64,000 bases of DNA from Candidatus Omnitrophota bacterium. GTDB lineage: Bacteria > Omnitrophota > Gorgyraeia > Gygaellales > JAQTUX01. Made by a program: the position numbers and the translations under genes. Within the stretch, counting starts at the first letter, position 1, and each line of letters starts with the position of its first letter. Below are positions 8,581 through 64,000 of the stretch, one piece after another. The notes beneath the pieces were generated by a model. That model was not told the DNA's origin, ran no database searches, and saw only the letters and a program-made list of their open reading frames with translations. The stretch covers positions 822,528 through 886,527 of the forward strand of contig JAQTUX010000001.1 in assembly GCA_028707125.1 (NCBI GenBank). Reading direction: 5' to 3'.

Positions 8581-8779
8581 GGCATTTTGTGCAGATGTTG
8601 ATCTTCTGCCTTCTGCCGTTAAGCAGCACCGTGATCTTCTGGATATTGGGAAGGAATGTCTTTTTATTGACGCGGGTTACCTTGCTTCCGGTACCGCCCT
8701 TTGCTTTGACGAGGCCCTTGCGCGAGAATGTGCGCCCCTTGACCGGGCCTTTATCGCATATGAAACATCTTTTTATCAT
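8552..8779 (-). CDS. rpmB: 50S ribosomal protein L28
   Basis: MxKxCxICxKGP...SRKG...KRTFLPN...CTKCLKAxKV pattern of bL28; 75 aa; 29-nt convergent overlap with recJ 3' end. Confidence 0.85.
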   Translation of the reverse strand: MIKRCFICDKGPVKGRTFSRKGLVKAKGGTGSKVTRVNKKTFLPNIQKITVLLNGRRQKINICTKCLKAEKVQKA

Positions 8780-8843
8780 AATGTGTCAGTATACTGTAAA
8801 AACCGTTTTTGTCAACATTTTTATCTAAAGAAAGCGAGGAGCC

Positions 8844-10097
8844 ATGGACAGAGTGGAACTGAAAAAATATCTATACGCCCGCGTTAAGGGCGTGATCAGC
8901 ACCGGTAAGCCCAGCCAGGACGAGCTCATTAGGCATTTTGATGAGATAGTGCAGGAACTGCAGAAGAATAAGAAATACGCCCATATACACCTGGATGAAG
9001 AGGTGGCGCGGGTGGCTATAAAGGAATTATGCGACGATATTACGGGGTTCGGGCCTCTGCAGGCGCTGCTGGATGATCCCGAGGTAAGCGAGATCATGGT
9101 TAACGGGATCCATAATATTTATATTGAGAAGAAGGGCAAAAGGGCGCTCAGCGGCATAAGTTTTGACGACGAAGAGCACCTTAAGTATATTGTTGAGAAG
9201 ATGCTTACCCCTTCAGGCAGGAGGCTGGATGAGTCCCTGCCTTTTGTGGATTTTGCCATGCCTGGAGGCATAAGGGTAAATGTCGCGATATCGCCGGTTA
9301 CTATGGAGGCGGCGGTGATCACGATACGGAAGTTCGCCTACGCCTTGAAATCCCTGGAGGATCTGGTCTCGCTGGGGACGCTTGATAAGCGCATGGCCTC
9401 TTTTCTTGTCTCTTGCGTGAAGGGCCGCCTTAATATTGTTTTTTCCGGCGCCACGGGCACCGGCAAGACCACGCTGCTAGCCGTCCTGTCTTCTCACATA
9501 GACAACAATGAGCGTATCATTATTATTGAGGATACGCCTGAGCTTGATTTTCGGCAGAGGCACGTTGTCCGCCTCTTGAGCCGGCTTGCCAATATCGCCG
9601 GCAAAGGCAAGATCAGCATCAGCGACCTTTTTATAAATTCGCTGCGAATGCACCCTACCCGCATTATCCTGGGAGAATTAAGAGGCGCTGAGGCAATGGA
9701 TTATCTTCAGGCATTAAACAGCGGACATAAAGGCAGCCTTGCCGTCCTTCACGCCAGTTCTCCGGAAAACGCGCTGGTGCGCCTTGAGCTGATGGCGCTT
9801 TACGCGGGGATCAACCTGCCTAATTGGGTTATCCGGGGGCTGATCGCTTCCGGAGTCGACCTTATTGTCCAGCTTGAGCAGTTCAAGGATGGAAGCCGCA
9901 AGGTAACGCGCATCAGCGAAGTAGGGGAACTGCAGAAAAACAATGATATCGCGCTTAAGGATATATTCGCCTATGAGATCGAATCCAGCAGCGACGAAAA
10001 GGTCAACGGCAGTTTTGTGGCGAAGGGCAAGCCGAGCTTCCTTGGCGACTTGAAGAAAAAGGGCGTAGAAATAGATGAAGCGATCTTTTCAAAGTGA
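8844..10097 (+). CDS. CpaF/TadA-family (VirB11-like) secretion ATPase
   Basis: Walker A GATGTGKTT, Walker B IIIEDTPEL, conserved His box; N-terminal CpaF-type domain. Confidence 0.8.
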   Translation: MDRVELKKYLYARVKGVISTGKPSQDELIRHFDEIVQELQKNKKYAHIHLDEEVARVAIKELCDDITGFGPLQALLDDPEVSEIMVNGIHNIYIEKKGKRALSGISFDDEEHLKYIVEKMLTPSGRRLDESLPFVDFAMPGGIRVNVAISPVTMEAAVITIRKFAYALKSLEDLVSLGTLDKRMASFLVSCVKGRLNIVFSGATGTGKTTLLAVLSSHIDNNERIIIIEDTPELDFRQRHVVRLLSRLANIAGKGKISISDLFINSLRMHPTRIILGELRGAEAMDYLQALNSGHKGSLAVLHASSPENALVRLELMALYAGINLPNWVIRGLIASGVDLIVQLEQFKDGSRKVTRISEVGELQKNNDIALKDIFAYEIESSSDEKVNGSFVAKGKPSFLGDLKKKGVEIDEAIFSK

Positions 10098-12996
10098 GCC
10101 CCTCTTAGAAGGCCTCAATGAAGAACAGCAAGAAGCGGTCACGCATACGGAAGGCCCTTTACTTATAATAGCCGGCGCAGGCACAGGCAAGACGCGGGTG
10201 ATCACCCGCCGCATCGCCTGGCTGATCAATTCCGGCCGCGCCACCACCCGTCAGATACTGGCGCTTACCTTCACCGATAAGGCGGCAACGGAAATGGAGG
10301 AGCGCGTTGACGTGCTGGTGCCGTACGGCTATACGGATATCTGGATCTCTACTTTTCACGCCTTCGGCGACAGGATCTTACGGGAAAATGCCATAGAGGC
10401 AGGGCTCAGGCCGGATTTTAAGGTGCTTACGCGCTCAGAAGCGGCCGTGTTCTTCCGCGAGAACCTGTATAAATTCAACCTTTCATATTACCGCCCGCTT
10501 TCAGACCCCGCGCATTTTATGACCGCGATGATAGGCCATTTTTCCCGCGCGAAGGATGAGGATATCTCTTCCGAAGAGTATATAGATTATTCGCTTAAAC
10601 TTACGCAGCGCGCCAAGGAGGATCCGGATGATGGAGCGCTTCAGGAGGAGGCGCTTAAGCAGGCGGAGATCGCTTACGCGTACCGCGCTTACCAGGAACT
10701 TCTCGTCAAGGCAGGCAAGGTTGATTTTGCCAATCAGTTTTCTCTGGCATTGCAGCTTTTGCGGGAGCATCCCGCGGTTTTAAGGCGCTATCAGGAGCAG
10801 TTCAAATATATCCTCGTTGATGAGTTCCAGGACACCAATTTCGCCCAATTTCAATTGCTTAAACTCCTGGGTTCACACGGCAGGAACATCACGGTTGTGG
10901 CCGACGATGACCAGTGCGTATTCAGGTTCAGGGGCGCGGCATACTCAAATATAATAAATTTCAATAATGAGTACCGGGACGCCAAGAAAATAAGCCTCAT
11001 ACGCAATTACCGCTCAACCCAGCCCATACTTGACTGCGCCTACCGGCTGATACAGCACAATAACCCGGAGAGATTTGAGGTCAAGGCGGATATCAATAAA
11101 CGCTTAGTCAGCGAAGAGAAGAACGGCGAGATGCCGCTGCATATGCATTTTGACACGTTTTCCAGCGAGGCAGACGCGGTGGCGCGGCAGATAAAGGAAA
11201 AGGCGGGCAAGGGCGGGTACCGCTATAATGATTTCTGCATACTCGTGCGTTCAAACAGCGACGCGGAGCCGTTCCTTCATTCGCTCAATATGCTTTCCAT
11301 ACCCTGGCGTTTCAGCGGCAACCGCGGCCTGTATTCCCGTGAAGAGGTCCGGTTGTGCGTTTCTTTCCTGCGGCTGATGGCCAATATCAACGATTCAATG
11401 AACCTCTATTTTCTCTCATCCGGAGCCGTATATGGCGTCCCCTTGAAAGACATTTCAGAGTGCATGCATTATTCCAAAAGGAGGAACCGCTCCCTGTTTT
11501 ATGTCTTTGAGCATTTATCCGAGATACCGGAATTGCAGGATATCAGCGCGGAGGCAAAGGAGAGGATAGGCAGGGTTGTTTCCGATATGAGCAGGTTCCT
11601 GGCGGACTCACGCGCGTTGATCACCGGCCGCCTGCTTTATCTTTTCCTTACCGATACCGGTTACATAAAGATGCTGGTAAAGGAAAAGAGCGCGGAGAGC
11701 GAAGAAAAGATACAAAATATCGCCAAGTTCTTTGAGCTGGTGCGCGCTTACGAACTTGTGGCGAGGGAAGACAGGGTGATATATTTCGTGAATTATTTAG
11801 ACCTGCTTATTGAAGCAGGCGATGACCCGGCAACGCAGGAGGCTGATTTAGACAGCGAGGCGGTAAATATCCTCACGATACACAAGGCAAAGGGGCTTGA
11901 GTTTCCGGTCGTGTTCATGGTATGCCTTGTCGCTGGCAGGTTCCCCTGGCCGCGCAGGCGCCAGCCGATCGAGCTGCCCGAGGAGCTATTCAAGGACATA
12001 CTGCCCAGCGGCGATTACCACACGCAGGAAGAAAGGCGGCTTTTCTATGTGGGGATGACCCGCGCCCAAAAGGAGCTCATTTTTACTTCCGCCCTTGACT
12101 ACGGCGGCAGCCGCGCCAGAAGGGTCAGCCCTTTTGTGCTTGAGGCGCTTGAGCTGCCCAAGGAAAGCACTCTTATCAAGCGCCCTTCCCTTGAGATAAT
12201 AAACAGGTATAAGCCGCCGGCGGAAAAGGAGCCGAGGCAAGGCGCGGGCACAATAAAGAACGGCGGGGTTCTATCGTTAAGCTATTATCAGTTGGACGAT
12301 TATCTTACCTGTCCGCTCAAATACAAGTATATCCATATTCTTCGCATACCTATTATGGAGCATCACACTGTTTTATACGGCAAGGCGATGCACGAGGCGG
12401 TGCAGATGTATTATACCTATAAGATGAAGGGCCTGCGCGTGGATGTCGATACTGTCATAGCGCGGTTCCGGGAGTCGTTTCGCGTAGAGGGGTTTCTCGC
12501 GCAGGAGCATCAGGATGACAGGTTGAAAAAGGGCAAGGAGTCGCTTAAGAAGTTTTTTGTGCTTGAGGAAGAGAGAAAACAGATGCCCTCCTATATAGAG
12601 AAAGAGTTTTCCTTTCAATATAAGGATAACCGCCTAAGAGGGCGCTGGGACAGGGTAGATGAGGCGGAAGAGGTCGTAATTATGGATTTCAAATCCTCAG
12701 AGGTTAAGTCGCAGCAGGAGGCGGATAAAAAGGCAAAGGACTCGCTGCAGCTCTCTCTATATGCCCTTGCCTATCAGCAGATCTATGACCGGCAGCCCGA
12801 TTATACGGCGCTTTATTTCCTTGAGACAGGCCTTATAGGCCGCGCGAAGAAGGAAGAGAAGGATTTTGAGAAGATCAGGGAGAATATAGATACCGTGGCA
12901 GGGGGTATCCGTCAGGCGGACTTTGAGGCCAGGCCTACCTATATGGCCTGTTCTTACTGCCCCTATAACTCCATATGCCCCAGCGCGTTTAAATAG
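10075..12996 (+). CDS. UvrD/PcrA-like superfamily 1 helicase fused to C-terminal PD-(D/E)XK (RecB/Cas4-like) nuclease with Cys cluster
   Basis: N-terminal AGAGTGKT Walker A and helicase motifs; C-terminal DFK...QLSLY and CxxC...CSYCPYNSIC cysteine cluster; 23-nt overlap with upstream cpaF-like gene. Confidence 0.8.
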   Translation: MKRSFQSEPLLEGLNEEQQEAVTHTEGPLLIIAGAGTGKTRVITRRIAWLINSGRATTRQILALTFTDKAATEMEERVDVLVPYGYTDIWISTFHAFGDRILRENAIEAGLRPDFKVLTRSEAAVFFRENLYKFNLSYYRPLSDPAHFMTAMIGHFSRAKDEDISSEEYIDYSLKLTQRAKEDPDDGALQEEALKQAEIAYAYRAYQELLVKAGKVDFANQFSLALQLLREHPAVLRRYQEQFKYILVDEFQDTNFAQFQLLKLLGSHGRNITVVADDDQCVFRFRGAAYSNIINFNNEYRDAKKISLIRNYRSTQPILDCAYRLIQHNNPERFEVKADINKRLVSEEKNGEMPLHMHFDTFSSEADAVARQIKEKAGKGGYRYNDFCILVRSNSDAEPFLHSLNMLSIPWRFSGNRGLYSREEVRLCVSFLRLMANINDSMNLYFLSSGAVYGVPLKDISECMHYSKRRNRSLFYVFEHLSEIPELQDISAEAKERIGRVVSDMSRFLADSRALITGRLLYLFLTDTGYIKMLVKEKSAESEEKIQNIAKFFELVRAYELVAREDRVIYFVNYLDLLIEAGDDPATQEADLDSEAVNILTIHKAKGLEFPVVFMVCLVAGRFPWPRRRQPIELPEELFKDILPSGDYHTQEERRLFYVGMTRAQKELIFTSALDYGGSRARRVSPFVLEALELPKESTLIKRPSLEIINRYKPPAEKEPRQGAGTIKNGGVLSLSYYQLDDYLTCPLKYKYIHILRIPIMEHHTVLYGKAMHEAVQMYYTYKMKGLRVDVDTVIARFRESFRVEGFLAQEHQDDRLKKGKESLKKFFVLEEERKQMPSYIEKEFSFQYKDNRLRGRWDRVDEAEEVVIMDFKSSEVKSQQEADKKAKDSLQLSLYALAYQQIYDRQPDYTALYFLETGLIGRAKKEEKDFEKIRENIDTVAGGIRQADFEARPTYMACSYCPYNSICPSAFK

Positions 12997-21899: not shown

Positions 21900-21907
21900 A
21901 AACTTGT

Positions 21908-22065
21908 CTTCGGGGTAGGGTGAGATTCCCGACTGGTGGTTGCGCAGAAAGCGCACACCGGCGCTTCCTTTAGCGCCGGGTGTTATAGCCCACGAGTTCG
22001 CTGATAGGCGAGCAGAACCGGTGAAATGCCGGTGCCAATGGTAAAGTCCAGATGGAAGAAGGCAG
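21908..22065 (+). promoter_or_regulatory. FMN riboswitch (RFN element) aptamer
   Basis: 5' CTTCGGGGTAGGGTGAGATTCCCGACTGGTGGT and 3' CCAATGGTAAAGTCCAGATGGAAGAAGG match conserved RFN segments; located upstream of ribBA. Confidence 0.75.
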
Positions 22066-22092
22066 GCGGCATCAGGTTTGATGTCGGGAAGC

Positions 22093-25071: not shown

Positions 25072-26148
25072 ATGCGCATGGCCCTGGAATGCGCTTTAAA
25101 GGCAAAGGGGCATACCAGCCCCAATCCTCTTGTAGGCGCTGTTTTAGTCAAGGGCAACAGGGTCATCTCAACCGGTTTTCACAGAAGGGCGGGCCTTGAC
25201 CACGCGGAGATAGACGCGATAAACAATGCCATAGGCAGCATCAGGGGTTCTACGCTTTACGTTACGCTTGAGCCCTGTTCCCATTTTGGCAGGACGCCGC
25301 CTTGCGCGGATGCCATAATCAAAAGCGGCATAAAGAAGGTGGTCGTAGGCATGAAGGACCCCAATCCCTTGAATAACGGCAGGGGCTTAAGCGCCTTGAA
25401 AAAGGCGGGCATAGAATTAAAGGCAGGGGTCCTTGAGCCGGAGTTGAGGGAAATAAACCGTCCGTTCATAAAATTCATTACCAGGAAAATGCCCTATGTG
25501 GTGGTCAAGGCGGGTATGAGTTTGGACGGCAGGATCGCCACCAGCACAGGTGAGTCCAAATGGATCACCTCGGATAAGGCGCGCAGATCCGCCCGGCGCC
25601 TGCGAAGCGAGTTTGACGCGATCATGGCAGGCAGTAATACGGTATTGCGCGATGACCCCTCTTTGGAGCCGGAACCGGCAAGGCCGGGTTATAAAAAGAT
25701 AATAATAGACAGGAAGTTGAGGATATCCCCGCGGGCCAGACTATTCAGGGGCGGTTCGGGGGTCATAATAGCGGCCTCCGATAAGAATCCCCTATCCAGA
25801 ATAAACAGATTTAAAGATAAGGCGGTTATACTGCCTGTGAGAGAACAGCGCGGCCGCCTGGATTTGAAGGACTTAATGAGGAAGTTGGCAGGGCTTGAGA
25901 TCACCAGCGTATTTGTTGAGGGCGGCGGAGAGCTTATCGGTTCACTATTTGATGCGCGCCTTGTGGACAGGGTAATGTTTTTTATCGCGCCTAAGATAAT
26001 CGGAGGCAGGGATGCTGTCAGTGTAGTGATGGGGAGGGGGGTGCCTAGCATAGCCAATTCCCATAAGATAACTAATCTCTCAGTAAGGAAAATCGGTAGA
26101 GATTTGTTGGTAGAAGGGGATGTGGATTCTACACACGTAAGTGTGTAG
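25072..26148 (+). CDS. ribD: Bifunctional riboflavin biosynthesis deaminase/reductase RibD
   Basis: CDA zinc motif HAEIDAI...PCxHxGRTPPC and C-terminal RibD_C reductase; last 7 codons lie inside a REP hairpin. Confidence 0.9.
   Translation: MRMALECALKAKGHTSPNPLVGAVLVKGNRVISTGFHRRAGLDHAEIDAINNAIGSIRGSTLYVTLEPCSHFGRTPPCADAIIKSGIKKVVVGMKDPNPLNNGRGLSALKKAGIELKAGVLEPELREINRPFIKFITRKMPYVVVKAGMSLDGRIATSTGESKWITSDKARRSARRLRSEFDAIMAGSNTVLRDDPSLEPEPARPGYKKIIIDRKLRISPRARLFRGGSGVIIAASDKNPLSRINRFKDKAVILPVREQRGRLDLKDLMRKLAGLEITSVFVEGGGELIGSLFDARLVDRVMFFIAPKIIGGRDAVSVVMGRGVPSIANSHKITNLSVRKIGRDLLVEGDVDSTHVSV
26129..26148. repeat. REP-type hairpin copy (CTACACAC-GTAA-GTGTGTAG)
   Basis: Perfect 8-bp stem/4-nt loop, same family as hairpins flanking the IS200-like tnpA. 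Confidence 0.55.
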
Positions 26149-26157
26149 TGAGAAATT

Positions 26158-26850: not shown

Positions 26851-26928
26851 CGGGGAGTAGCTCAGTTTGGCTAGAGCGTTTGGTTCGGGACCAAAAGGCC
26901 GTGGGTTCAAGTCCCACCTCCCCGACCA
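26851..26928 (+). tRNA. tRNA-Pro (anticodon CGG)
   Basis: Cloverleaf folded by hand: 7-bp acceptor CGGGGAG/CTCCCCG, U8A9, D-stem GCTC/GAGC, anticodon loop TTCGGGA, T-loop TTCAAGT, encoded CCA. Confidence 0.85.
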
Positions 26929-52319: not shown

Positions 52320-52347
52320 TCTTTACCATCTTCCAAGGCGTTTCCCT

Positions 52348-52367
52348 CTACACACTTACGTGTGTAG
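52348..52367. repeat. REP-type hairpin (CTACACAC-TTAC-GTGTGTAG) overlapping tnpA stop codon
   Basis: Perfect 8-bp stem; the TAA stop of tnpA lies in the loop. Confidence 0.6.
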
Positions 52368-52727
52368 AATCCTTTGGCTGCGGATGTATTCTTGCACGCT
52401 TTCTAATTCTACTATATCCACTTCTCTAAAACCATATCGCCTTGCCCAGAAATGCTTAGGATTGTAATTCCCCACACGTAAGTGTGGGGTGTTCTCCAAT
52501 AGTTTCTTACCAGAAACAGATTTTAGTGTTCTTACCATATCAGCCAATTCTTTCCTGTCTTTTGCTTCCAGCAACATATGCACGTGGTTCTTATTGGATT
52601 CCATTTCCAAAATATTATAGTTCTTTCGTTGTGCTACCTCTAGAAAAGAGTTCTTTGCTATCTCTTCAGCTTTCGCTTCCAGTGTTTCTCTTCTGCGCTT
52701 TGTCACGAACCAGATATGGTAATACAT
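52356..52727 (-). CDS. tnpA: IS200/IS605-family Y1 (HUH) transposase TnpA / REP-associated tyrosine transposase-like
   Basis: HUH motif HVHMLL, C-terminal catalytic Tyr in SVQEYIRSQ, ~123 aa; REP hairpins at gene end and inside it. Confidence 0.8.
   Translation of the reverse strand: MYYHIWFVTKRRRETLEAKAEEIAKNSFLEVAQRKNYNILEMESNKNHVHMLLEAKDRKELADMVRTLKSVSGKKLLENTPHLRVGNYNPKHFWARRYGFREVDIVELESVQEYIRSQRILHT
52470..52489. repeat. REP-type hairpin in inverted orientation (CCCCACAC-GTAA-GTGTGGGG), inside tnpA coding sequence
   Basis: Perfect 8-bp stem; encodes TPHLRVG of TnpA. Confidence 0.55.
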
Positions 52728-52806
52728 GGTTTTTGCGGAAATTACCCCCCTCTACTATATATGACGCAAAAATCAGCGTTTTACTTGCAAGAAAGTTTAA
52801 ATATTC

Positions 52807-53042
52807 TATGAACCCGCTGGCTTCCTCGCTCATATCGGTTTTGCCCCGAATGGTATTCAAAGAGGGCCGGCAAAGGTCTCTCGCAGCTCGGTGCTTGCGG
52901 AACTCGCCCTTTTTGCTCCAGCAAAAAGGGCTCAGACAGTCCTCGCACTTTGGGCCTTATAGGCCACAAAGTTCCCTCGCTGCTCGAGCTGCTTTGCCTA
53001 AAACCTCAAATTCGCTCGTAAGCCAGCGGGTTCATTTACGAG
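52807..53042. repeat. MITE-like element with ~24-bp terminal inverted repeats (ATGAACCCGCTGGCTTcCtCGCTC) and internal 11-bp perfect hairpin
   Basis: TIRs read directly at ~52808-52833 and ~53016-53040; internal GCCCTTTTTGC-TCCA-GCAAAAAGGGC. Confidence 0.45.
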
Positions 53043-53177
53043 ATGCTCGCTCGTAGGAATATCAAAAATAACTAAGCAATCAGAACTTATTACGGTATAA
53101 TAGATAGCAGCAAGGAGAACCGTCCCCGATCCAATATTTATATTACAAGAAAGCATAATGTCGACTAATTATTTTCT

Positions 53178-53205
53178 TGACATATAATATTAAATGTGTT
53201 AATCT
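53178..53205 (+). promoter_or_regulatory. Sigma70-like promoter of island operon (TTGACA-16-TAATCT) with AAAGGAGG RBS downstream
   Basis: Read directly in AT-rich spacer upstream of 53232. Confidence 0.45.
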
Positions 53206-53231
53206 GTTAACATCTATGAAAGGAGGCAAGC

Positions 53232-53432
53232 ATGCAAAAACAAAAAAATGACACTGAAAGAGATATGGTAAAACATCTGAAGAAATTAGTTATGCTTAGC
53301 GAAAATTCCTTGATTATAAGTCTATCTCAACAAGATGTCCCTCATCAGACGATACGAAAAGTTGCCGGAGTTGATATGTCTCGTGTCACCTCGTTGCTTC
53401 GCGGGGTAAAGTCTGCAAAAAAGACTGATTAG
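53232..53432 (+). CDS. Small putative HTH protein, paralog 1 of 4 (66 aa)
   Basis: Hydrophobic helix then helix-turn-helix-like HQTIRKVAGVDMSRVTSLLRG; aligns with the other three small ORFs. Confidence 0.5.
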   Translation: MQKQKNDTERDMVKHLKKLVMLSENSLIISLSQQDVPHQTIRKVAGVDMSRVTSLLRGVKSAKKTD

Positions 53433-53448
53433 CGAAAGGAGTACTACT

Positions 53449-53613
53449 ATGCAAAACACTGACAAAATCATTGAGGAATTAGTGGCTATAAAGAAGCTGC
53501 TTATGCTTCAATTAATGCGCGATGACGTGGACGCCTCCGTAATTGGGAAGGTACTAGAACTAACCCCTACGCGAATACGACAAATAATACCAGTAAAAGA
53601 CGTACGCAAATAA
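53449..53613 (+). CDS. Small putative HTH protein, paralog 2 of 4 (54 aa; below ORF-track cutoff)
   Basis: MQNTDKIIEELVAIKKLLMLQLMRDDVDASVIGKVLELTPTRIRQIIPVKDVRK; AGGAG RBS 8 nt upstream; same architecture as neighbours. Confidence 0.5.
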   Translation: MQNTDKIIEELVAIKKLLMLQLMRDDVDASVIGKVLELTPTRIRQIIPVKDVRK

Positions 53614-53628
53614 TAAGGAGCCTTCATA

Positions 53629-53856
53629 ATGAAACGAACTAGGAAAATTGGCGCAGAAGACGAAGTTTCAGTAAAATTGGGCATCTTAATCCGGTTGTTT
53701 ATTGAATTTCTGATAACATCGGAAAATAAGAACTTTAATACTGGCAACGTTGCAAGAATCTTAAAATCACTCGATATTACACCAACCGAAATTGCAAGAA
53801 TGTTAGGTAAGAAATCTGTAACTGATGTTGCACCATTTCTTTATCGTAAGAAGTAA
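53629..53856 (+). CDS. Small putative HTH protein, paralog 3 of 4 (75 aa)
   Basis: LGILIRLFIEFLI helix then NVARILKSLDITPTEIARMLG HTH-like segment. Confidence 0.5.
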   Translation: MKRTRKIGAEDEVSVKLGILIRLFIEFLITSENKNFNTGNVARILKSLDITPTEIARMLGKKSVTDVAPFLYRKK

Positions 53857-53869
53857 GGGGTAGATACCA

Positions 53870-54769
53870 ATGTCTACTTATATTCAGCAAGTAACAGACG
53901 TTAGATCAAATTCAAGTGACCAAATACACTTCGCAGCAAAATTGATTAGGCGTTCCAGACAAAAAAAGGCCGTGTTTAAGGCAATCTACCGTGGTAAAAA
54001 ACAGATTAAATCCATTTCTGAAATAGAGAAAGTCACCGATTTAAATAATATCCAAATATTAAAAGCTGGTGGGACCTTAGCTGGGAATGGTATTGTCAAA
54101 AAAGTAAAAAAGGGATACCAAAAAGATACATTTTATGCACAACATTATCGCAAAATATTGTCTCTCGCCTCAAATAGTAAAAAGTTGAAACAATTCCCAA
54201 CAAAAACACAACCCTATCTCAATTCTAATATAGGCACAACTAGTAGAATATCGCTTAAAAAACCTGCGCAAAAAGTAAGATTTATTACAATTGATGATAT
54301 CTATTCATTTAGAAAAATTAAAGATAATAAATCAAAAAATAATATAGATGGAACATTTCTTTCCAAACTTCCTGAGAATGAAATCAAAAGTGGAATCGCA
54401 AAGATCATTAGGGAAAGCGGAATATTTAAAGACTGGGCAGGAGAAAAAAATGATCTATTTACAACAAAAGTAAGCATTGGATCAAAAAGGGTGGCTGCTG
54501 TTTTTGCGTTTAAAGGAAAAGGCACAAAAGGCATTTTAACATTAGATAAAATGGGAAAAAGAGCAGACCAAATTCAGCGACTATTTGACAGCCAATCTTC
54601 TCAACTATTTATAGTGGTTTATAAAGGACAAATAGGCCAAGTTATTCTTGAGCAGATGTATGCTTACGCTATTGCGAAGGCTCTTTACGGTAAAGAGATC
54701 TATTACGGTATTATTGATGGAGATGACTTGATGCGGCTAATTTCATCTTATAAGAACTGTTTTGAATAG
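53870..54769 (+). CDS. Hypothetical K-rich 299-aa protein, no recognisable domain
   Basis: AT-rich codon usage; N-terminal possible winged-helix-like segment, low-complexity K/N/S linker, C-terminal alpha/beta region (possible nuclease-like fold, unproven). Confidence 0.5.
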   Translation: MSTYIQQVTDVRSNSSDQIHFAAKLIRRSRQKKAVFKAIYRGKKQIKSISEIEKVTDLNNIQILKAGGTLAGNGIVKKVKKGYQKDTFYAQHYRKILSLASNSKKLKQFPTKTQPYLNSNIGTTSRISLKKPAQKVRFITIDDIYSFRKIKDNKSKNNIDGTFLSKLPENEIKSGIAKIIRESGIFKDWAGEKNDLFTTKVSIGSKRVAAVFAFKGKGTKGILTLDKMGKRADQIQRLFDSQSSQLFIVVYKGQIGQVILEQMYAYAIAKALYGKEIYYGIIDGDDLMRLISSYKNCFE

Positions 54770-54780
54770 GAGGCGACATA

Positions 54781-54990
54781 ATGAAGAAAAAGCGCAGTAT
54801 AACTAAAAAAAGTCTGTCTGATTCCGATCGTTTAGATATAATCATATCTTTACTAAGTCACTTACTAACTGTTCAGTTATATAAATCAGGCGCGACAATG
54901 GATGATATATGTAGGCATTTACATATTGCAAAAACATCCGTGGTCGATATGTTAAAAGGTTTCAAGCGAAAGCTCGGTAATAATTCGTAA
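54781..54990 (+). CDS. Small putative HTH protein, paralog 4 of 4 (69 aa)
   Basis: IIISLLSHLLTVQL helix then TMDDICRHLHIAKTSVVDMLKGF. Confidence 0.5.
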   Translation: MKKKRSITKKSLSDSDRLDIIISLLSHLLTVQLYKSGATMDDICRHLHIAKTSVVDMLKGFKRKLGNNS

Positions 54991-55080
54991 ACAAGACGGT
55001 TACAATTAATCTTGGACCAATAACATAATGGGGACGGTTCTCATTAGTTTTAGTTGCTGAATCATAACAGACCTAGTAGC

Positions 55081-55180
55081 CGCTTTTCGTAATTAGCTAA
55101 TTTCCCGTAACTTACAGAACAAATATTTACCCCACACTTACGTGTGGGGAATGGCAATCCCTGATTGTCTCAGCGGGTGG
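55081..55180 (+). repeat. Repeat unit U1: CGCTTTTCGTAATTAGCTAATT head (12-bp perfect palindrome AATTAGCTAATT) + REP hairpin (55130-55149) + CTGATTGTCTCAGCGGGTG tail
   Basis: Read directly; second copy U2 ~175 bp downstream. Confidence 0.55.
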
Positions 55181-55255
55181 CTTTGGACGGGGCGCCCCGC
55201 CCCGCGCGGAGTTCTCCCGTCCGTTATGGTAATGAATTCTATGAAGAATGGCAGA

Positions 55256-55400
55256 CGCTTTTCGTAATTAGCTAATTCCCCCATAACTCTATATAAGGAT
55301 ATCACAAGATGTGATATCCTTTATTGTTTCTAATGCTATTGGAGGGTACCCCACACTTACGTGTGGGGAATGACAATTCTGCACTGATTGTCTCAGCGGG
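55256..55400 (+). repeat. Repeat unit U2: same head, extra perfect hairpin AAGGATATCAC-AAGAT-GTGATATCCTT (55295-55321), REP hairpin (55349-55368), tail merging into 230-bp repeat copy 1
   Basis: Read directly. Confidence 0.55.
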
Positions 55401-55613
55401 TGACTGCCGAGCGGGCACAGAATTTCGGGAGGGGTGACGTCGTTTTGAGGGCTCCCGCCGCGCGGACCCGCCAAGACATCTGGCGGGGAGCACGGCGGGA
55501 AACAAAACGACGGCAGGACCCCTCCCTCAGAGTTACAATCTAGATACTTCGGCGGTGATTTATTGACAAGGCCGCCTCAGTATCAACACCAGGACGCATA
55601 CGAAGGTGTTGAC
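55384..55613 (+). repeat. ~230-bp GC-rich structured direct repeat, copy 1 (upstream of MNT/HEPN pair)
   Basis: Near-identical to 56405-56634; nested inverted repeats GGGAGGGGTGACGTCGTTTTG / CAAAACGACGGCAGGACCCCTCCC and inner CCCGCCA-AGACATC-TGGCGGG. Confidence 0.7.
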
Positions 55614-55638
55614 ATTTATATAAGTTATATTGTATAAT
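55609..55638 (+). promoter_or_regulatory. Consensus sigma70-like promoter (TTGACA-18-TATAAT) for MNT/HEPN operon
   Basis: Perfect hexamers read directly at the end of repeat copy 1. Confidence 0.55.
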
Positions 55639-55679
55639 TAAGTTGCGAATACTTAGCGGGATAAAAAAATTAGGCAAAT

Positions 55680-55967
55680 ATGACGACAAAGATTAGTAGA
55701 ATAAAACAAATAATACTGCCGATCTTGCAACAATACGGCGCTAAAAAAGCAGCGCTATTTGGCTCATATGTCAGAGACCAGATGAAAAAGGATAGTGATA
55801 TTGATATATTGGTAGAAATTGAAAAGGATATCAGCCTGCTTGATTTTATAGGTCTTAAACAAGAGATTGAAGAGGCGTTAGGAAGGAAGATAGATTTGGT
55901 GGAATATGACAGCATTAAACCTCTTCTCAGAAAGCGTATTTTAAAAGAGCAAGTGGTAATTCTATGA
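55680..55967 (+). CDS. Minimal nucleotidyltransferase (MntA-like antitoxin)
   Basis: GSxxRG...DSDIDILV pol-beta NTase motif, 95 aa. Confidence 0.8.
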   Translation: MTTKISRIKQIILPILQQYGAKKAALFGSYVRDQMKKDSDIDILVEIEKDISLLDFIGLKQEIEEALGRKIDLVEYDSIKPLLRKRILKEQVVIL

Positions 55968-56308
55968 AAAGAGACGCTAGAGTATATATCGAAGATATCA
56001 TAGAGAGCATTACAAAGATAGAAGAGTATACGAAGGATCTTAAGTCCGAAGACGATTTCTATAAGGATACTCAGATTCAAGATGCTGTCTTAAGGCGGCT
56101 GGAAATCATCGGTGAGGCAGTTAAGAATATCCCCGAAGAGATCAAGAGGAAATATCCGCAGATACCATGGAAGAAGATTGCCGGCATGAGAGATATTCTT
56201 ACTCATCAATATTTTGTAGTAAACCTGAAACAAACATTTAAGGCAGTCAAAGAAGACATCCTCGATCTAAAAAAGAACATTGCGCAGATAAACAAAGAAT
56301 TGCCATAG
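55964..56308 (+). CDS. HEPN-domain toxin (DUF86/HepT-like)
   Basis: Rx4HxY motif (RDILTHQY), 114 aa, 4-nt overlap with upstream NTase gene. Confidence 0.8.
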   Translation: MKRDARVYIEDIIESITKIEEYTKDLKSEDDFYKDTQIQDAVLRRLEIIGEAVKNIPEEIKRKYPQIPWKKIAGMRDILTHQYFVVNLKQTFKAVKEDILDLKKNIAQINKELP

Positions 56309-56352
56309 TTGTTTTGAGGTCGCAAAGTGCGACCTCAAAGATTGTTTCGTTT

Positions 56353-56384
56353 ACGCCTCCAAATTAACTTGGAGGCGTTTTTAT
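56353..56384 (+). terminator. Intrinsic terminator after HEPN gene (GCCTCC-AAATTAAC-TTGGAGGC + T-run), preceded by a second hairpin at 56314-56338
   Basis: Read directly. Confidence 0.65.
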
Positions 56385-56404
56385 TGGACGCGGATGGATT
56401 GGTT

Positions 56405-56634
56405 CTGATTGTCTCAGCGGGTGACGCCGAGCGGGCACAGAATTTCGGGAGGGGTGACGTCGTTTTGAGGGCTCCCGCCGCGCGGACCCGCCAAGACATC
56501 TGGCGGGGAGCACGGCGGGAAACAAAACGACGGCAGGACCCCTCCCCTCAGAGTTACAATCTAGATACTTCGGCGGTGATTTATTGACAAGGCCGCCTCA
56601 GTATCAACACCGAGCAGCATACGAAGGTGTTGAC
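56405..56634 (+). repeat. ~230-bp GC-rich structured direct repeat, copy 2 (upstream of yggS)
   Basis: Near-identical to 55384-55613 (few substitutions/indels). Confidence 0.7.
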
Positions 56635-56664
56635 TTCCTCGATAGATTATGATAATTTAAGGCG

Positions 56665-57312
56665 ATGATTAGGGAGAATATTGCCCGCATAAGAGAGGAA
56701 ATATCGGCTGTTTGCGGGAAAATCGGCCGTGACCCTAAGGAAATCAGGATTATTGCCGTATCAAAAGGCAGGTCAATAGAGGAAATTGAGGAAGTTCTGG
56801 CCTGCGGCATCACTGATATCGGCGAAAATAAGGTCCAGGAAGCCAAGCGCAAGATTAAAGGTTTAAGCGCCAAGTTGCACATGGTTGGACACCTGCAGTC
56901 AAACAAGTCCAAGGGCGCTGTTGAGCTCTTTGATCTGATACATTCTGTGGACAGCTTTGAACTCGCTGAAGCCATTGATAAACAGGCGGCAAAACTCGGC
57001 AAAGTCCAGGATATCCTGATCGAGGTCAACACTTCCGGCGAAAAGAGCAAATTCGGCATAAGGCCGGACGACCTTATCCTGCTTATCGGCCGGATAAGAG
57101 AGCTTAAACACATTCGCGTCAAGGGGCTGATGACAATGGCGCCTGTGGCGGATAACCCCGAGGAAATAAGGCCGTATTTCAGGAAGTTAAGGGAGTTAAG
57201 AGACCGGGAACATCTGGCAGAACTATCAATGGGAATGAGCGATGACTATAAGGTCGCCATAGAAGAAGGCGCCACAATAGTGCGCCTGGGCAGGGCGATA
57301 TTTGAAAAGTAG
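56665..57312 (+). CDS. yggS: PLP homeostasis protein YggS/PROSC family
   Basis: Alanine-racemase-N-like TIM barrel with conserved Lys in IAVSKGRS...HMVGHLQSNK. Confidence 0.85.
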   Translation: MIRENIARIREEISAVCGKIGRDPKEIRIIAVSKGRSIEEIEEVLACGITDIGENKVQEAKRKIKGLSAKLHMVGHLQSNKSKGAVELFDLIHSVDSFELAEAIDKQAAKLGKVQDILIEVNTSGEKSKFGIRPDDLILLIGRIRELKHIRVKGLMTMAPVADNPEEIRPYFRKLRELRDREHLAELSMGMSDDYKVAIEEGATIVRLGRAIFEK

Positions 57313-62643: not shown

Positions 62644-63378
62644 ATGCACCCAGTCATTTGTACAATCGGGCCGTTCACAGTATACTCCTACGGCCTTATG
62701 GTGGTCGCCGGATTCCTGCTTGCCTTGTTCCTGGCGAAAAGGCAGGCGCCGAAATACGGCATAGACCCGCAGCTTCTATCTAATCTCTGTTTTCTGCTTC
62801 TTGTTTCGGGAGTGCTCGGCGCGCGGATATTTTATGTGGCGCTGCACTTTTCTTTGTTCAGGGACAACCCGTTTGAAATATTTTTGCTTAACAGGGGCGG
62901 CTTGAGCTGGTTCGGCGGCTTGTTTTTCGCTGCGGCAGGCAGCGTATTTTATTTGCGCAAAAAGAAGGCCGGTGTATTTTTGCACCTTGATTTCCTGGCG
63001 CCCTACATCGCTCTGGCTCAGGCAGTGGGAAGGATAGGGTGTTTCCTGAACGGCTGCTGTTTCGGTTATCCTTCCGATAATGGGGTGTATTTTCCGGTTC
63101 ATGGAGCGCGGCTGGTCCCTGTCCAGCTTTATTCCGCGTTGTCGCTCTTCGTCATCTTTCTGCTGCTCAGGTCTTTTCAGGGGCGTATGCTCAAGCGCGG
63201 CTCTCTATTTTCCCTGTATCTGTTGTTCGCTTCCGCCGAAAGATTTCTTAGCGAATTTCTAAGAGCGGAGGAGCGCCTGTTTTTCGCTGGCCTCAGCATA
63301 TTCCAGTGGATATGCGCAGGCATATTTCTGGCATCCCTTATCGCATTAGTCGCAATAAAACTCAATCGACAAAAATAG
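62644..63378 (+). CDS. lgt: Phosphatidylglycerol--prolipoprotein diacylglyceryl transferase
   Basis: Lgt signature G...Y...G and conserved GRIGCFLNGCCFG region. Confidence 0.9.
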   Translation: MHPVICTIGPFTVYSYGLMVVAGFLLALFLAKRQAPKYGIDPQLLSNLCFLLLVSGVLGARIFYVALHFSLFRDNPFEIFLLNRGGLSWFGGLFFAAAGSVFYLRKKKAGVFLHLDFLAPYIALAQAVGRIGCFLNGCCFGYPSDNGVYFPVHGARLVPVQLYSALSLFVIFLLLRSFQGRMLKRGSLFSLYLLFASAERFLSEFLRAEERLFFAGLSIFQWICAGIFLASLIALVAIKLNRQK

Positions 63379-63570
63379 TCCGTCATTGCGAGCCCCGCAT
63401 TTGTCTGGGCGAAGCGACCGAAGGGAGTCCCGAGCGAAGTCGAGGGGCAATCTCTTTTTGCGGCTGGATTGTCTGTGTTTCGCGGCAGCGGGGCCTGCCG
63501 CCGAGCCACCCTATCCGTGCTCATTTTCCATAACAGACGGGAGGACTGCGCGCGGATAGGGGACCTGTCT

Positions 63571-63595
63571 CGGCGTCACCCGCTGAGACAATCAG
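63571..63595 (-). repeat. Inverted copy of the 25-nt head (CTGATTGTCTCAGCGGGTGACGCCG) of the 230-bp repeats
   Basis: Exact reverse complement of 56405-56429; sits in a GC-rich hairpin-rich spacer after lgt. Confidence 0.55.
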
Positions 63596-63765
63596 AACTA
63601 CTTAACCCCTCGCCCGCAATGTAACTACCCACTTTCCTATTCAGATAGGAAACAGTTTCTTATCCGTTCCGTAGAATACATCTCCTGTTATCCTTGTTTT
63701 GCCTGCTTCTAAGTAGTATAATATGGTTCAACGTAAAATGTTAGGAGTTCAAAATAGGAGTGATA

Positions 63766-64000
63766 ATGTTTAAAAAAATATTTCTTCTGAAATTCAAAGT
63801 GGTTTTGTTATCGGTTGTATCGTTAATGGTTTTTATGTTTGTTTCAGGGTGTGCTACTATGGGTAGCGGAAGATTCATGTTGCGACAGGACTTGATAGTT
63901 AATCAGTATGATACAATAAAAGAAATCGTGATTGAGGAAGCTGCAAATAACGGCTTTAGTCATCTCGTTTCAGAAGTAAAGCCATCACAGTTTAATAATT
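63766..64000 (+). CDS. Putative lipoprotein, 5' partial (runs off window end)
   Basis: ATG after AGGAG RBS and TATAAT-containing promoter; signal peptide with lipobox-like VSGCAT. Confidence 0.45.
   Translation, partial: MFKKIFLLKFKVVLLSVVSLMVFMFVSGCATMGSGRFMLRQDLIVNQYDTIKEIVIEEAANNGFSHLVSEVKPSQFNN

Follow-up and report, generated by a model that had tools for sequence, protein, structure and literature searches.

What question does this locus raise?

In the genome of an uncultivated Omnitrophota bacterium, a toxin–antitoxin (TA) pair lies just upstream of yggS, bracketed by two nearly identical copies of a GC-rich sequence of some 230 nt, and the question is what this repeated sequence is and how the pair came to lie between its copies. 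Our window, meaning the whole stretch of DNA that was analysed, is 64 kb long (64,000 nucleotides), and all coordinates below refer to it. The features at the centre of the question are the two copies of the repeat, here called R, together with the pair that they enclose:

55384–55613, + strand: R1, the upstream copy of the 230-nt repeat, made up of a head segment (55384–55426), a long hairpin LH (55427–55526) and a tail (55527–55613) that ends in TTGAC
55680–55967, + strand: MNT-type nucleotidyltransferase, the antitoxin, 95 aa (PF18765, 2e-17; PF01909, 5e-17; MDD4909902.1)
55964–56308, + strand: HepT-like HEPN ribonuclease, the toxin, 114 aa (PF01934, 1.6e-28)
56312–56388, + strand: two terminator-like hairpins from the terminator scan that close the TA module, with R2 beginning 16 nt further on
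56405–56634, + strand: R2, the downstream copy, with head segment (56405–56446), LH (56447–56547) and tail (56548–56634)

The initial annotation had described the two copies as near-identical, and indeed they align as direct repeats at 97.4% identity over 231 columns (E 3e-112), so the feature is real and was accurately located. Two single-base indels separate the copies, namely an extra T in R1 at 55405 and a run, CCCCTCCC, in which R1 is one C short, at the end of LH. At both positions R2 matches an independent copy (element D, described below, for the head, and a related genome, L011, for the end of LH), which means that R1 holds both derived changes. The substitutions form a single cluster within the loop capping the last small hairpin (CCAGGACGC vs CCGAGCAGC), and the central 121 nt show no differences at all. 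The limits of the homology are sharp, with a start at CTGATTG and an end at GGTGTTGAC, and at the right end of R1 the GC content falls from about 60% to about 36% precisely at 55613/55614.

As an aside, all of the substitutions lie within 5 nt of that one loop (AGGAC vs GAGCA; 55591–55597 vs 56612–56617) and leave the stem unchanged, and the cluster may have arisen in one mutation of several bases, or as a patch converted from a third copy. We discarded the idea of a DGR template/variable repeat pair, since no reverse transcriptase is present and the changes are not confined to adenines.

What is the repeat made of?

R is a patchwork of the head segment, LH and a tail of about 85 nt, and it is GC-rich relative to its surroundings. 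Nested inverted repeats had been noted in each copy, and these do form, in each, an imperfect hairpin of about 100 nt with a folding energy of about −69 kcal/mol, the end of LH being placed at CCCCTCCCCT by comparison with L011. Set against dinucleotide shuffles, the full repeat folds with z-scores of −6.0 (+ strand) and −6.5 (− strand). Neither strand folds better than the other (0 and 3 G-U pairs), which is what one expects of a DNA palindrome. A candidate right inverted repeat of R is at chance level, as 157 of 500 shuffles score as well.

Database searches place R in no known family. With Rfam 15, nothing overlaps R, the related elements A and D (below) or a further GC-rich element at 52800–53050, even at E<=10, and the only matches above the gathering threshold in the window are an FMN riboswitch and one tRNA. 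No match to R turned up in plasmids or phages by blastn, or to the 3' arm of LH in viral contigs, and a six-frame translation of R, aimed at spurious ORFs called over related elements, gave nothing in the protein database at E<=10. Literature searches yielded nothing relevant on Omnitrophota repeats or on repeat-flanked HEPN/MNT modules. For the record, the FMN riboswitch (98 bits; 21902–22067) lies ahead of riboflavin genes, and the tRNA gene is at 26851–26925. Several familiar candidates were also tried and discarded: SRP or 6S RNA, for which there is no Rfam signal; a yggS leader or riboswitch, since R lies upstream of the promoter; and an att duplication of the tRNA type, as there is no tRNA-like sequence.

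Whose promoters lie at the ends of the repeats?

Three short features lie at the right-hand ends of R1 and R2:

55609–55638, + strand: hybrid promoter of the TA pair, TTGACA-18-TATAAT (promoter scan, sequence, GC profile)
within 56405–56634, + strand: the last five nucleotides of R2, which are the native yggS −35 (sequence and relatives)
56630–56656, + strand: yggS promoter-like motif, TTGACT-N15-GATAAT, conserved in the relatives L011 and L012

The perfect promoter that had been proposed ahead of the nucleotidyltransferase gene is confirmed, and its composition is a mixed one, in which TTGAC comes from the GC-rich repeat while the spacer and the −10 come from the low-GC cassette; the spacer contains an operator-like palindrome, ATATAA-G-TTATAT. 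The promoter proposed for yggS fares somewhat differently, since its arrangement is conserved in two relatives but its spacing of 15 nt falls outside the 16–18 nt that were scanned. The repeats had also been said to stop a few nucleotides short of these promoters, and this is not so: each actually includes the first five bases of the −35 hexamer. Nor can ending before a promoter be taken as a property of the element, because TTGACT stands at the matching position in two relatives that have no tail, so that the last five bases of R2 are the native −35 of yggS. R1 ends in GGTGTTGAC just as R2 does, and the GC content drops there, from which it follows that R1 copies a stretch including half of the yggS promoter and that its own closeness to a promoter is inherited from the duplication. 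Judged from sequence, then, R1 appears to be not an independently inserted element and instead a segmental duplication that carries part of the yggS promoter, and the MNT/HEPN pair is predicted to be driven by a hybrid junction promoter with a −35 from duplicated host sequence. The shared TTGAC could, for its part, be a coincidence of two promoters and not duplicated sequence.

What do related genomes and assembly break points tell us?

The more distant of the two relatives, L012 (YggS 65% identical), has ftsA, about 100 nt and then yggS, with TTGACT-N15-GATAAT present and none of the repeats, and from there the series yggS, proC, phosphorylase, ileS, dksA-like, lspA and lgt runs in the same order and orientation as in the window, where an inversion of this 7.1-kb yggS–lgt block had been suggested. 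As the whole zone is absent from L012, 52320–56630 can be regarded as a zone of insertion where the dcw cluster ends. (In passing, ftsZ does not follow ftsA in the window, at 52320–56664, nor in L012, at 8671–10690.)

The closer relative is represented by L011, a Logan contig from another run, with DNA 88.7% identical over yggS–proC. Its first 30 nt are those at the end of LH (30/30 identical); 20 unrelated nt come next, and then TTGACT and the −10 region of the window. The presence of the LH 3' arm ahead of yggS in L011 means that LH was there before the lineages split and predates the TA insertion, and the lack of the tail makes the 85-nt tail an indel between the two genomes.

Two further short-read Logan contigs, L007 and L023, match the window at 100% identity, and the places at which contigs break are themselves informative. 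L023 covers 52989–55157, starting inside the 52800–53050 element and ending 3 nt before the head of element A. L007 starts at 56582, which is the first 31-mer to include an R2-specific base, and two variants of R must therefore be present in that run. L011, likewise, starts with precisely 30 shared nt plus the first divergent base. These breaks are as expected at repeated or polymorphic sequence, and we take them as signs that the modules are multi-copy or polymorphic.

What else has entered the zone between ftsA and yggS?

Besides the TA pair and several GC-rich repeat modules, the insertion zone contains an IS200-like transposase and orphan ORFs of low GC content. Housekeeping genes in the window have about 50% GC, and from the end of ftsA (52319) to R the sequence is mostly at 30–40%. 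Transposase-related features in the zone are as follows:

52356–52727, − strand: IS200/IS605-family Y1 transposase gene tnpA, at the left edge of the insertion zone (PF01797, 1e-27)
55128–55160: a shorter tnpA-like fragment before the head of A (sequence comparison)
55336–55380, + strand: a 45-nt fragment homologous to the tnpA coding region (LLEgTPHLRVGN), directly before the head of R1 (sequence comparison)

Directly upstream of tnpA (− strand) is the element at 52800–53050, which is about 250 nt long, GC-rich and closed by a 16-bp stem (ATGAACCCGCTGGCTT / AAGCCAGCGGGTTCAT), with folding z-scores of −6.1 (+ strand) and −7.3 (− strand); it may be multi-copy, as L023 begins inside it. The five ORFs at 53232–54990 (66, 54, 75, 299 and 69 aa; 30–40% GC) match no family in Pfam, PHROGs or PADLOC, and Logan run SRR22315508 contains all of them at 100% identity; for the 69-aa ORF there is a weak HTH match, and the NCBI annotation omits it. 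Across the island ORFs, PHROGs and PADLOC gave no match apart from MNT, and near the array of repeats Pfam matches are limited to FtsA, the Y1 transposase, the TA pair and housekeeping genes.

Where else does the head of the repeat occur?

The first 19 nt of R, which we call the head (CTGATTGTCTCAGCGGGTG), has four matches in the 64-kb window against 0.01 expected by chance, at 55161, 55384 and 56405 on the + strand and at 63577–63595 on the − strand. Copies at R1, at R2 and, inverted, after lgt had all been recognised earlier, but the copy at 55161–55179 was overlooked, and the inverted copy, which is indeed present, extends over 30 nt and not 25, at 100% identity to R2 (56402–56431 vs 63569–63598). 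The two additional heads belong to elements of their own:

55161–55252, + strand: element A, with the 19-nt head of R, a different body (a second subfamily) and apparent truncation (sequence comparison)
63465–63598, − strand: element D, with the inverted head, 30 nt of it identical to R2, folding as one hairpin (sequence comparison, folding)

The bodies of A and D are 81% identical over 42 columns, a score reached by 0 of 2000 shuffles, and since this body differs from that of R there must be at least two subfamilies of head-bearing element. The D head has an inverted partner, CTGGATTGTCT, 120 nt away at 63465–63475 (19 of 500 shuffles score as well), and it is these two ends that close the D hairpin. 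All four heads have a sharp left edge, upstream of which the context of A and R1 is unlike that of R2 and D, and the heads recur at junctions of low-GC cargo with GC-rich repeat. No target-site duplication is visible at any of the four, and the tetranucleotides to their left (ATCC, TGCA, GGTT, AGTT) are not shared; an IS200/IS605 end structure was accordingly rejected, as the four flanks share no cleavage tetranucleotide. Searches with the exact 19-nt head in genome, metagenome and viral contig collections returned chance matches only, in unrelated high-GC genes (Planctomycetia and others).

What is the cargo, and where are its relatives?

The pair qualifies as a HepT/MntA (HEPN/MNT) type VII TA system, with adjacent genes that overlap by 4 nt and pass the Pfam cut-offs, and MNT in addition matches the PADLOC candidate system PDC-S09. 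The module is self-contained in that it brings its own −10, the operator-like palindrome and two terminators. Its closest HepT homologues (79% and 78% aa identity) are found beside a T2SS ATPase gene and on a plasmid-like contig with RepA and integrase, and among more distant matches (68–70% aa) there are two Omnitrophica loci in which the pair follows directly after leuA or a secretin gene. At five homologous MNT/HEPN loci elsewhere, no flanking direct repeats were found. For MNT, HEPN and tnpA the NCBI MAG is the sole source of exact protein records, and all three are missing from the Logan assembly of a run in which the flanking genes are found at 100% identity. The island ORFs and YggS are known from Logan as well; this pattern hints at presence/absence variation of the TA pair, or at assembly fragmentation.

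How might the arrangement have arisen?

On balance, we think it probable that the R1–TA–R2 arrangement is a repeat-mediated insertion or duplication that went through R, and that R represents native palindromic modules upstream of yggS and not an RNA gene. R would be a block of non-coding, GC-rich palindromic modules that stands ahead of yggS in this Omnitrophota lineage. A foreign, low-GC MNT/HEPN module would then have come in before yggS, with a segmental duplication of 230 nt, including the yggS −35, giving R1–TA–R2. Recombination through R itself seems the likeliest route, either as a single crossover between the resident R and a copy of R linked to the TA pair on circular or incoming DNA, or as an unequal exchange between copies of R. 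Because the duplicated stretch reaches as far as the yggS −35, yggS and the TA pair both keep a −35, and the TA pair would by this means have gained a consensus hybrid promoter. Recombination between the direct repeats could presumably remove the resulting 1,021-bp unit once more or set it free as a circle, and an addictive TA pair would be expected to oppose such loss.

This reading keeps part of what was first proposed, a duplicated structured element that captured a TA pair: the element is indeed duplicated and structured and brackets the MNT/HEPN genes, but its suggested identity as an RNA gene, or as a cassette boundary in the sense of an integron, is unsupported. In addition, we infer that the modules belong to a dispersed, MITE- or REP-like repeat family of this genome, on the basis of the assembly break points and of four heads in one 64-kb window, no further full copies of R having been found. 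One counterpoint should be kept in mind, which is that cargo followed by head occurs three times (A, R1 and R2, with D inverted), with sharp left edges, and so regular an array is more than one would expect of simple homologous recombination and would be in keeping with a site-specific system.

Which other explanations have to be weighed?

The proposal that R encodes a structured small RNA in two copies is very improbable indeed. A very stable fold, with z about −6, and a GC-richness that stands out from the surroundings would be in keeping with it, as would the 30/30 match of LH in a relative with 88.7% identity in the adjacent genes, a match for which the chance at that identity is about 3%. 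Against this, the strands fold equally, there is no Rfam family, the scan finds neither a promoter-like site upstream of R nor a terminator downstream, R is upstream of promoters and not in a leader, and the tail is absent from the relative. An assembly artefact, in which the TA pair and one R exist as a separate circle or at another copy of R and were threaded ahead of yggS through the repeat, is very unlikely as well. It is true that a circle of TA plus R and an integrated copy would yield identical assembly graphs, that short-read contigs break at the repeat, and that the exact MNT and HEPN proteins come from the NCBI MAG and not from the Logan assembly with both flanks; however, R1 and R2 differ at defined positions, L007 breaks at the first R2-specific base, implying two R variants in the reads, and the source contig is 1.26 Mb long. 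We also find it quite unlikely that R is a MITE-like non-autonomous element that inserted twice independently and carried an outward-facing −35, a feature of Correia elements and of many IS ends. The inverted ends that close D as one hairpin, the IS200-like transposase and its fragments in the zone, and assembly breaks that suggest several copies of the modules all speak for such an element. Yet the right inverted repeat proposed for R stays at chance level, there is no target-site duplication, Y1 transposases do not use terminal inverted repeats, and in the tail-less relatives TTGACT is in place, so that what looks like the right end of R2 belongs to the host promoter; two independent insertions both ending precisely in a −35 would, moreover, be improbable.

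A rather different idea is that the head, or the whole of R, is a recombinase site, and that the locus is a cassette array (integron- or CALIN-like, or a tandem att integration) in which the TA pair plus one R is the mobile unit. We regard this as unlikely, and it would nevertheless account for three direct heads and one inverted one, each at a junction of low-GC cargo with GC-rich repeat and each with a sharp left edge, for elements that are imperfect bulged hairpins reminiscent of attC, and for a Logan assembly that matches the flanking genes at 100% but is without MNT, HEPN and tnpA. A TA module that brings a promoter of its own, as the present one does, is a typical integron cassette. The cassette boundary that had been suggested nonetheless finds no backing as one of integron type, as a regular-expression scan of 54900–56700 and 63350–63700 detected no RYYYAAC...GTTRRRY core pair on either strand, and the closest homologous TA cassettes are without such flanks. 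The sole AAC/GTT hairpin (TCAACACC...GGTGTTGA) has about 30 nt and an unbroken stem, where attC sites are imperfect hairpins of 55–140 nt, and Pfam identifies no integrase among the ORFs beside the array. The homology between R1 and R2 also runs 210 nt past the head into the native promoter, which fits homologous exchange. It seems quite unlikely, too, that the head-bearing hairpins of A, R1, R2 and D serve a so far undescribed recombination system of Omnitrophota, site-specific or acting on single strands, that stacks cargo (the TA pair and defence-like ORFs) beside housekeeping operons, integron-like but lacking canonical attC cores and IntI. A possible enzyme for such a system would be the nearby Y1 (HUH) transposase, whose substrates are DNA hairpins.

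How does the locus compare with known systems, and why does it matter?

As non-coding imperfect palindromes of 100–160 nt that are GC-rich relative to their surroundings and apparently multi-copy, the modules resemble ERIC/IRU, Correia/NEMIS and REP/BIME elements, and they share with these an intergenic position near promoters and a role as substrates for recombination and rearrangement. The likeness is one of form and not of demonstrated sequence relation, however, and there is no target-site duplication, with inverted ends that are marginal and confined to D. Integron cassettes and CALINs offer a parallel in cargo followed by a hairpin repeat in one orientation, in a TA pair with its own promoter and in a unit that could be excised as a circle, but R''/R' cores and a nearby integrase are lacking here, and a 230-nt near-identical repeat reaches into the host promoter. 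The hybrid promoter, with TTGAC at the end of a GC-rich repeat and, at consensus spacing, a −10 supplied by the low-GC cassette, recalls those formed at insertion junctions, the difference being that the −35 seems to be half of a duplicated host promoter and not an IS end. Finally, IS200/IS605 elements and their derivatives (PATEs, REP/RAYT) come to mind through the Y1 transposase gene in the zone and through hairpins related to the tnpA 3' end elsewhere (26124–26155), but R has no conserved flanking tetranucleotide and bears no similarity to the hairpins beside tnpA.

If the repeat-mediated reading is true, short palindromic repeats would have served as landing pads in a streamlined, uncultivated bacterium, placing a foreign TA module in the ftsA–yggS interval, where the cell-division (dcw) cluster ends, by a duplication that kept the host promoter and gave the newcomer a consensus promoter of its own. 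This would be useful for Omnitrophota genome annotation and for understanding the spread of TA and defence genes, if not surprising, and the importance would be greater if the head-bearing elements were sites of a dedicated recombination system. For now, the locus is best read as an ordinary, though tidy, repeat-mediated insertion or duplication built from uncharacterised small repeats.

What other small repeats accompany these elements?

A hairpin core of the form CACAC-GTAA/TTAC-GTGTG occurs five times in the window (52345–52369, 52467–52491, 55128–55158, 55347–55377 and 26124–26155): within the tnpA coding region, where it encodes PHLRVG, at the tnpA stop codon, in the two 32–45-nt tnpA-like fragments that precede heads A and R1, and by itself between ribD and ribE. 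By its appearance this hairpin family looks REP-like. A motif of 26–29 nt, CGCTTTTCGTAATTAGCTAATTYCCC, occurs twice (55078–55106 and 55253–55281) and, together with a tnpA-like fragment and a head, forms a unit that is itself present twice, at 55078–55179 and 55253–55402, the second with an additional terminator-like hairpin at 55295–55321.

At the far side of the housekeeping block, a second low-GC stretch (about 35%; 63600–64000) begins right after element D, with an ORF from 63766 that starts with a lipoprotein-like signal (…FVSGC); the relative L012, unlike the window, has a pseudouridine synthase gene after lgt. Directly after lgt in the window there is a GC-rich segment at 63383–63460 (GTCATTGCGAG...GCGAAGCGACCGAAGG...CAATCTC), which may resemble a short repeat that is common among many environmental bacteria.
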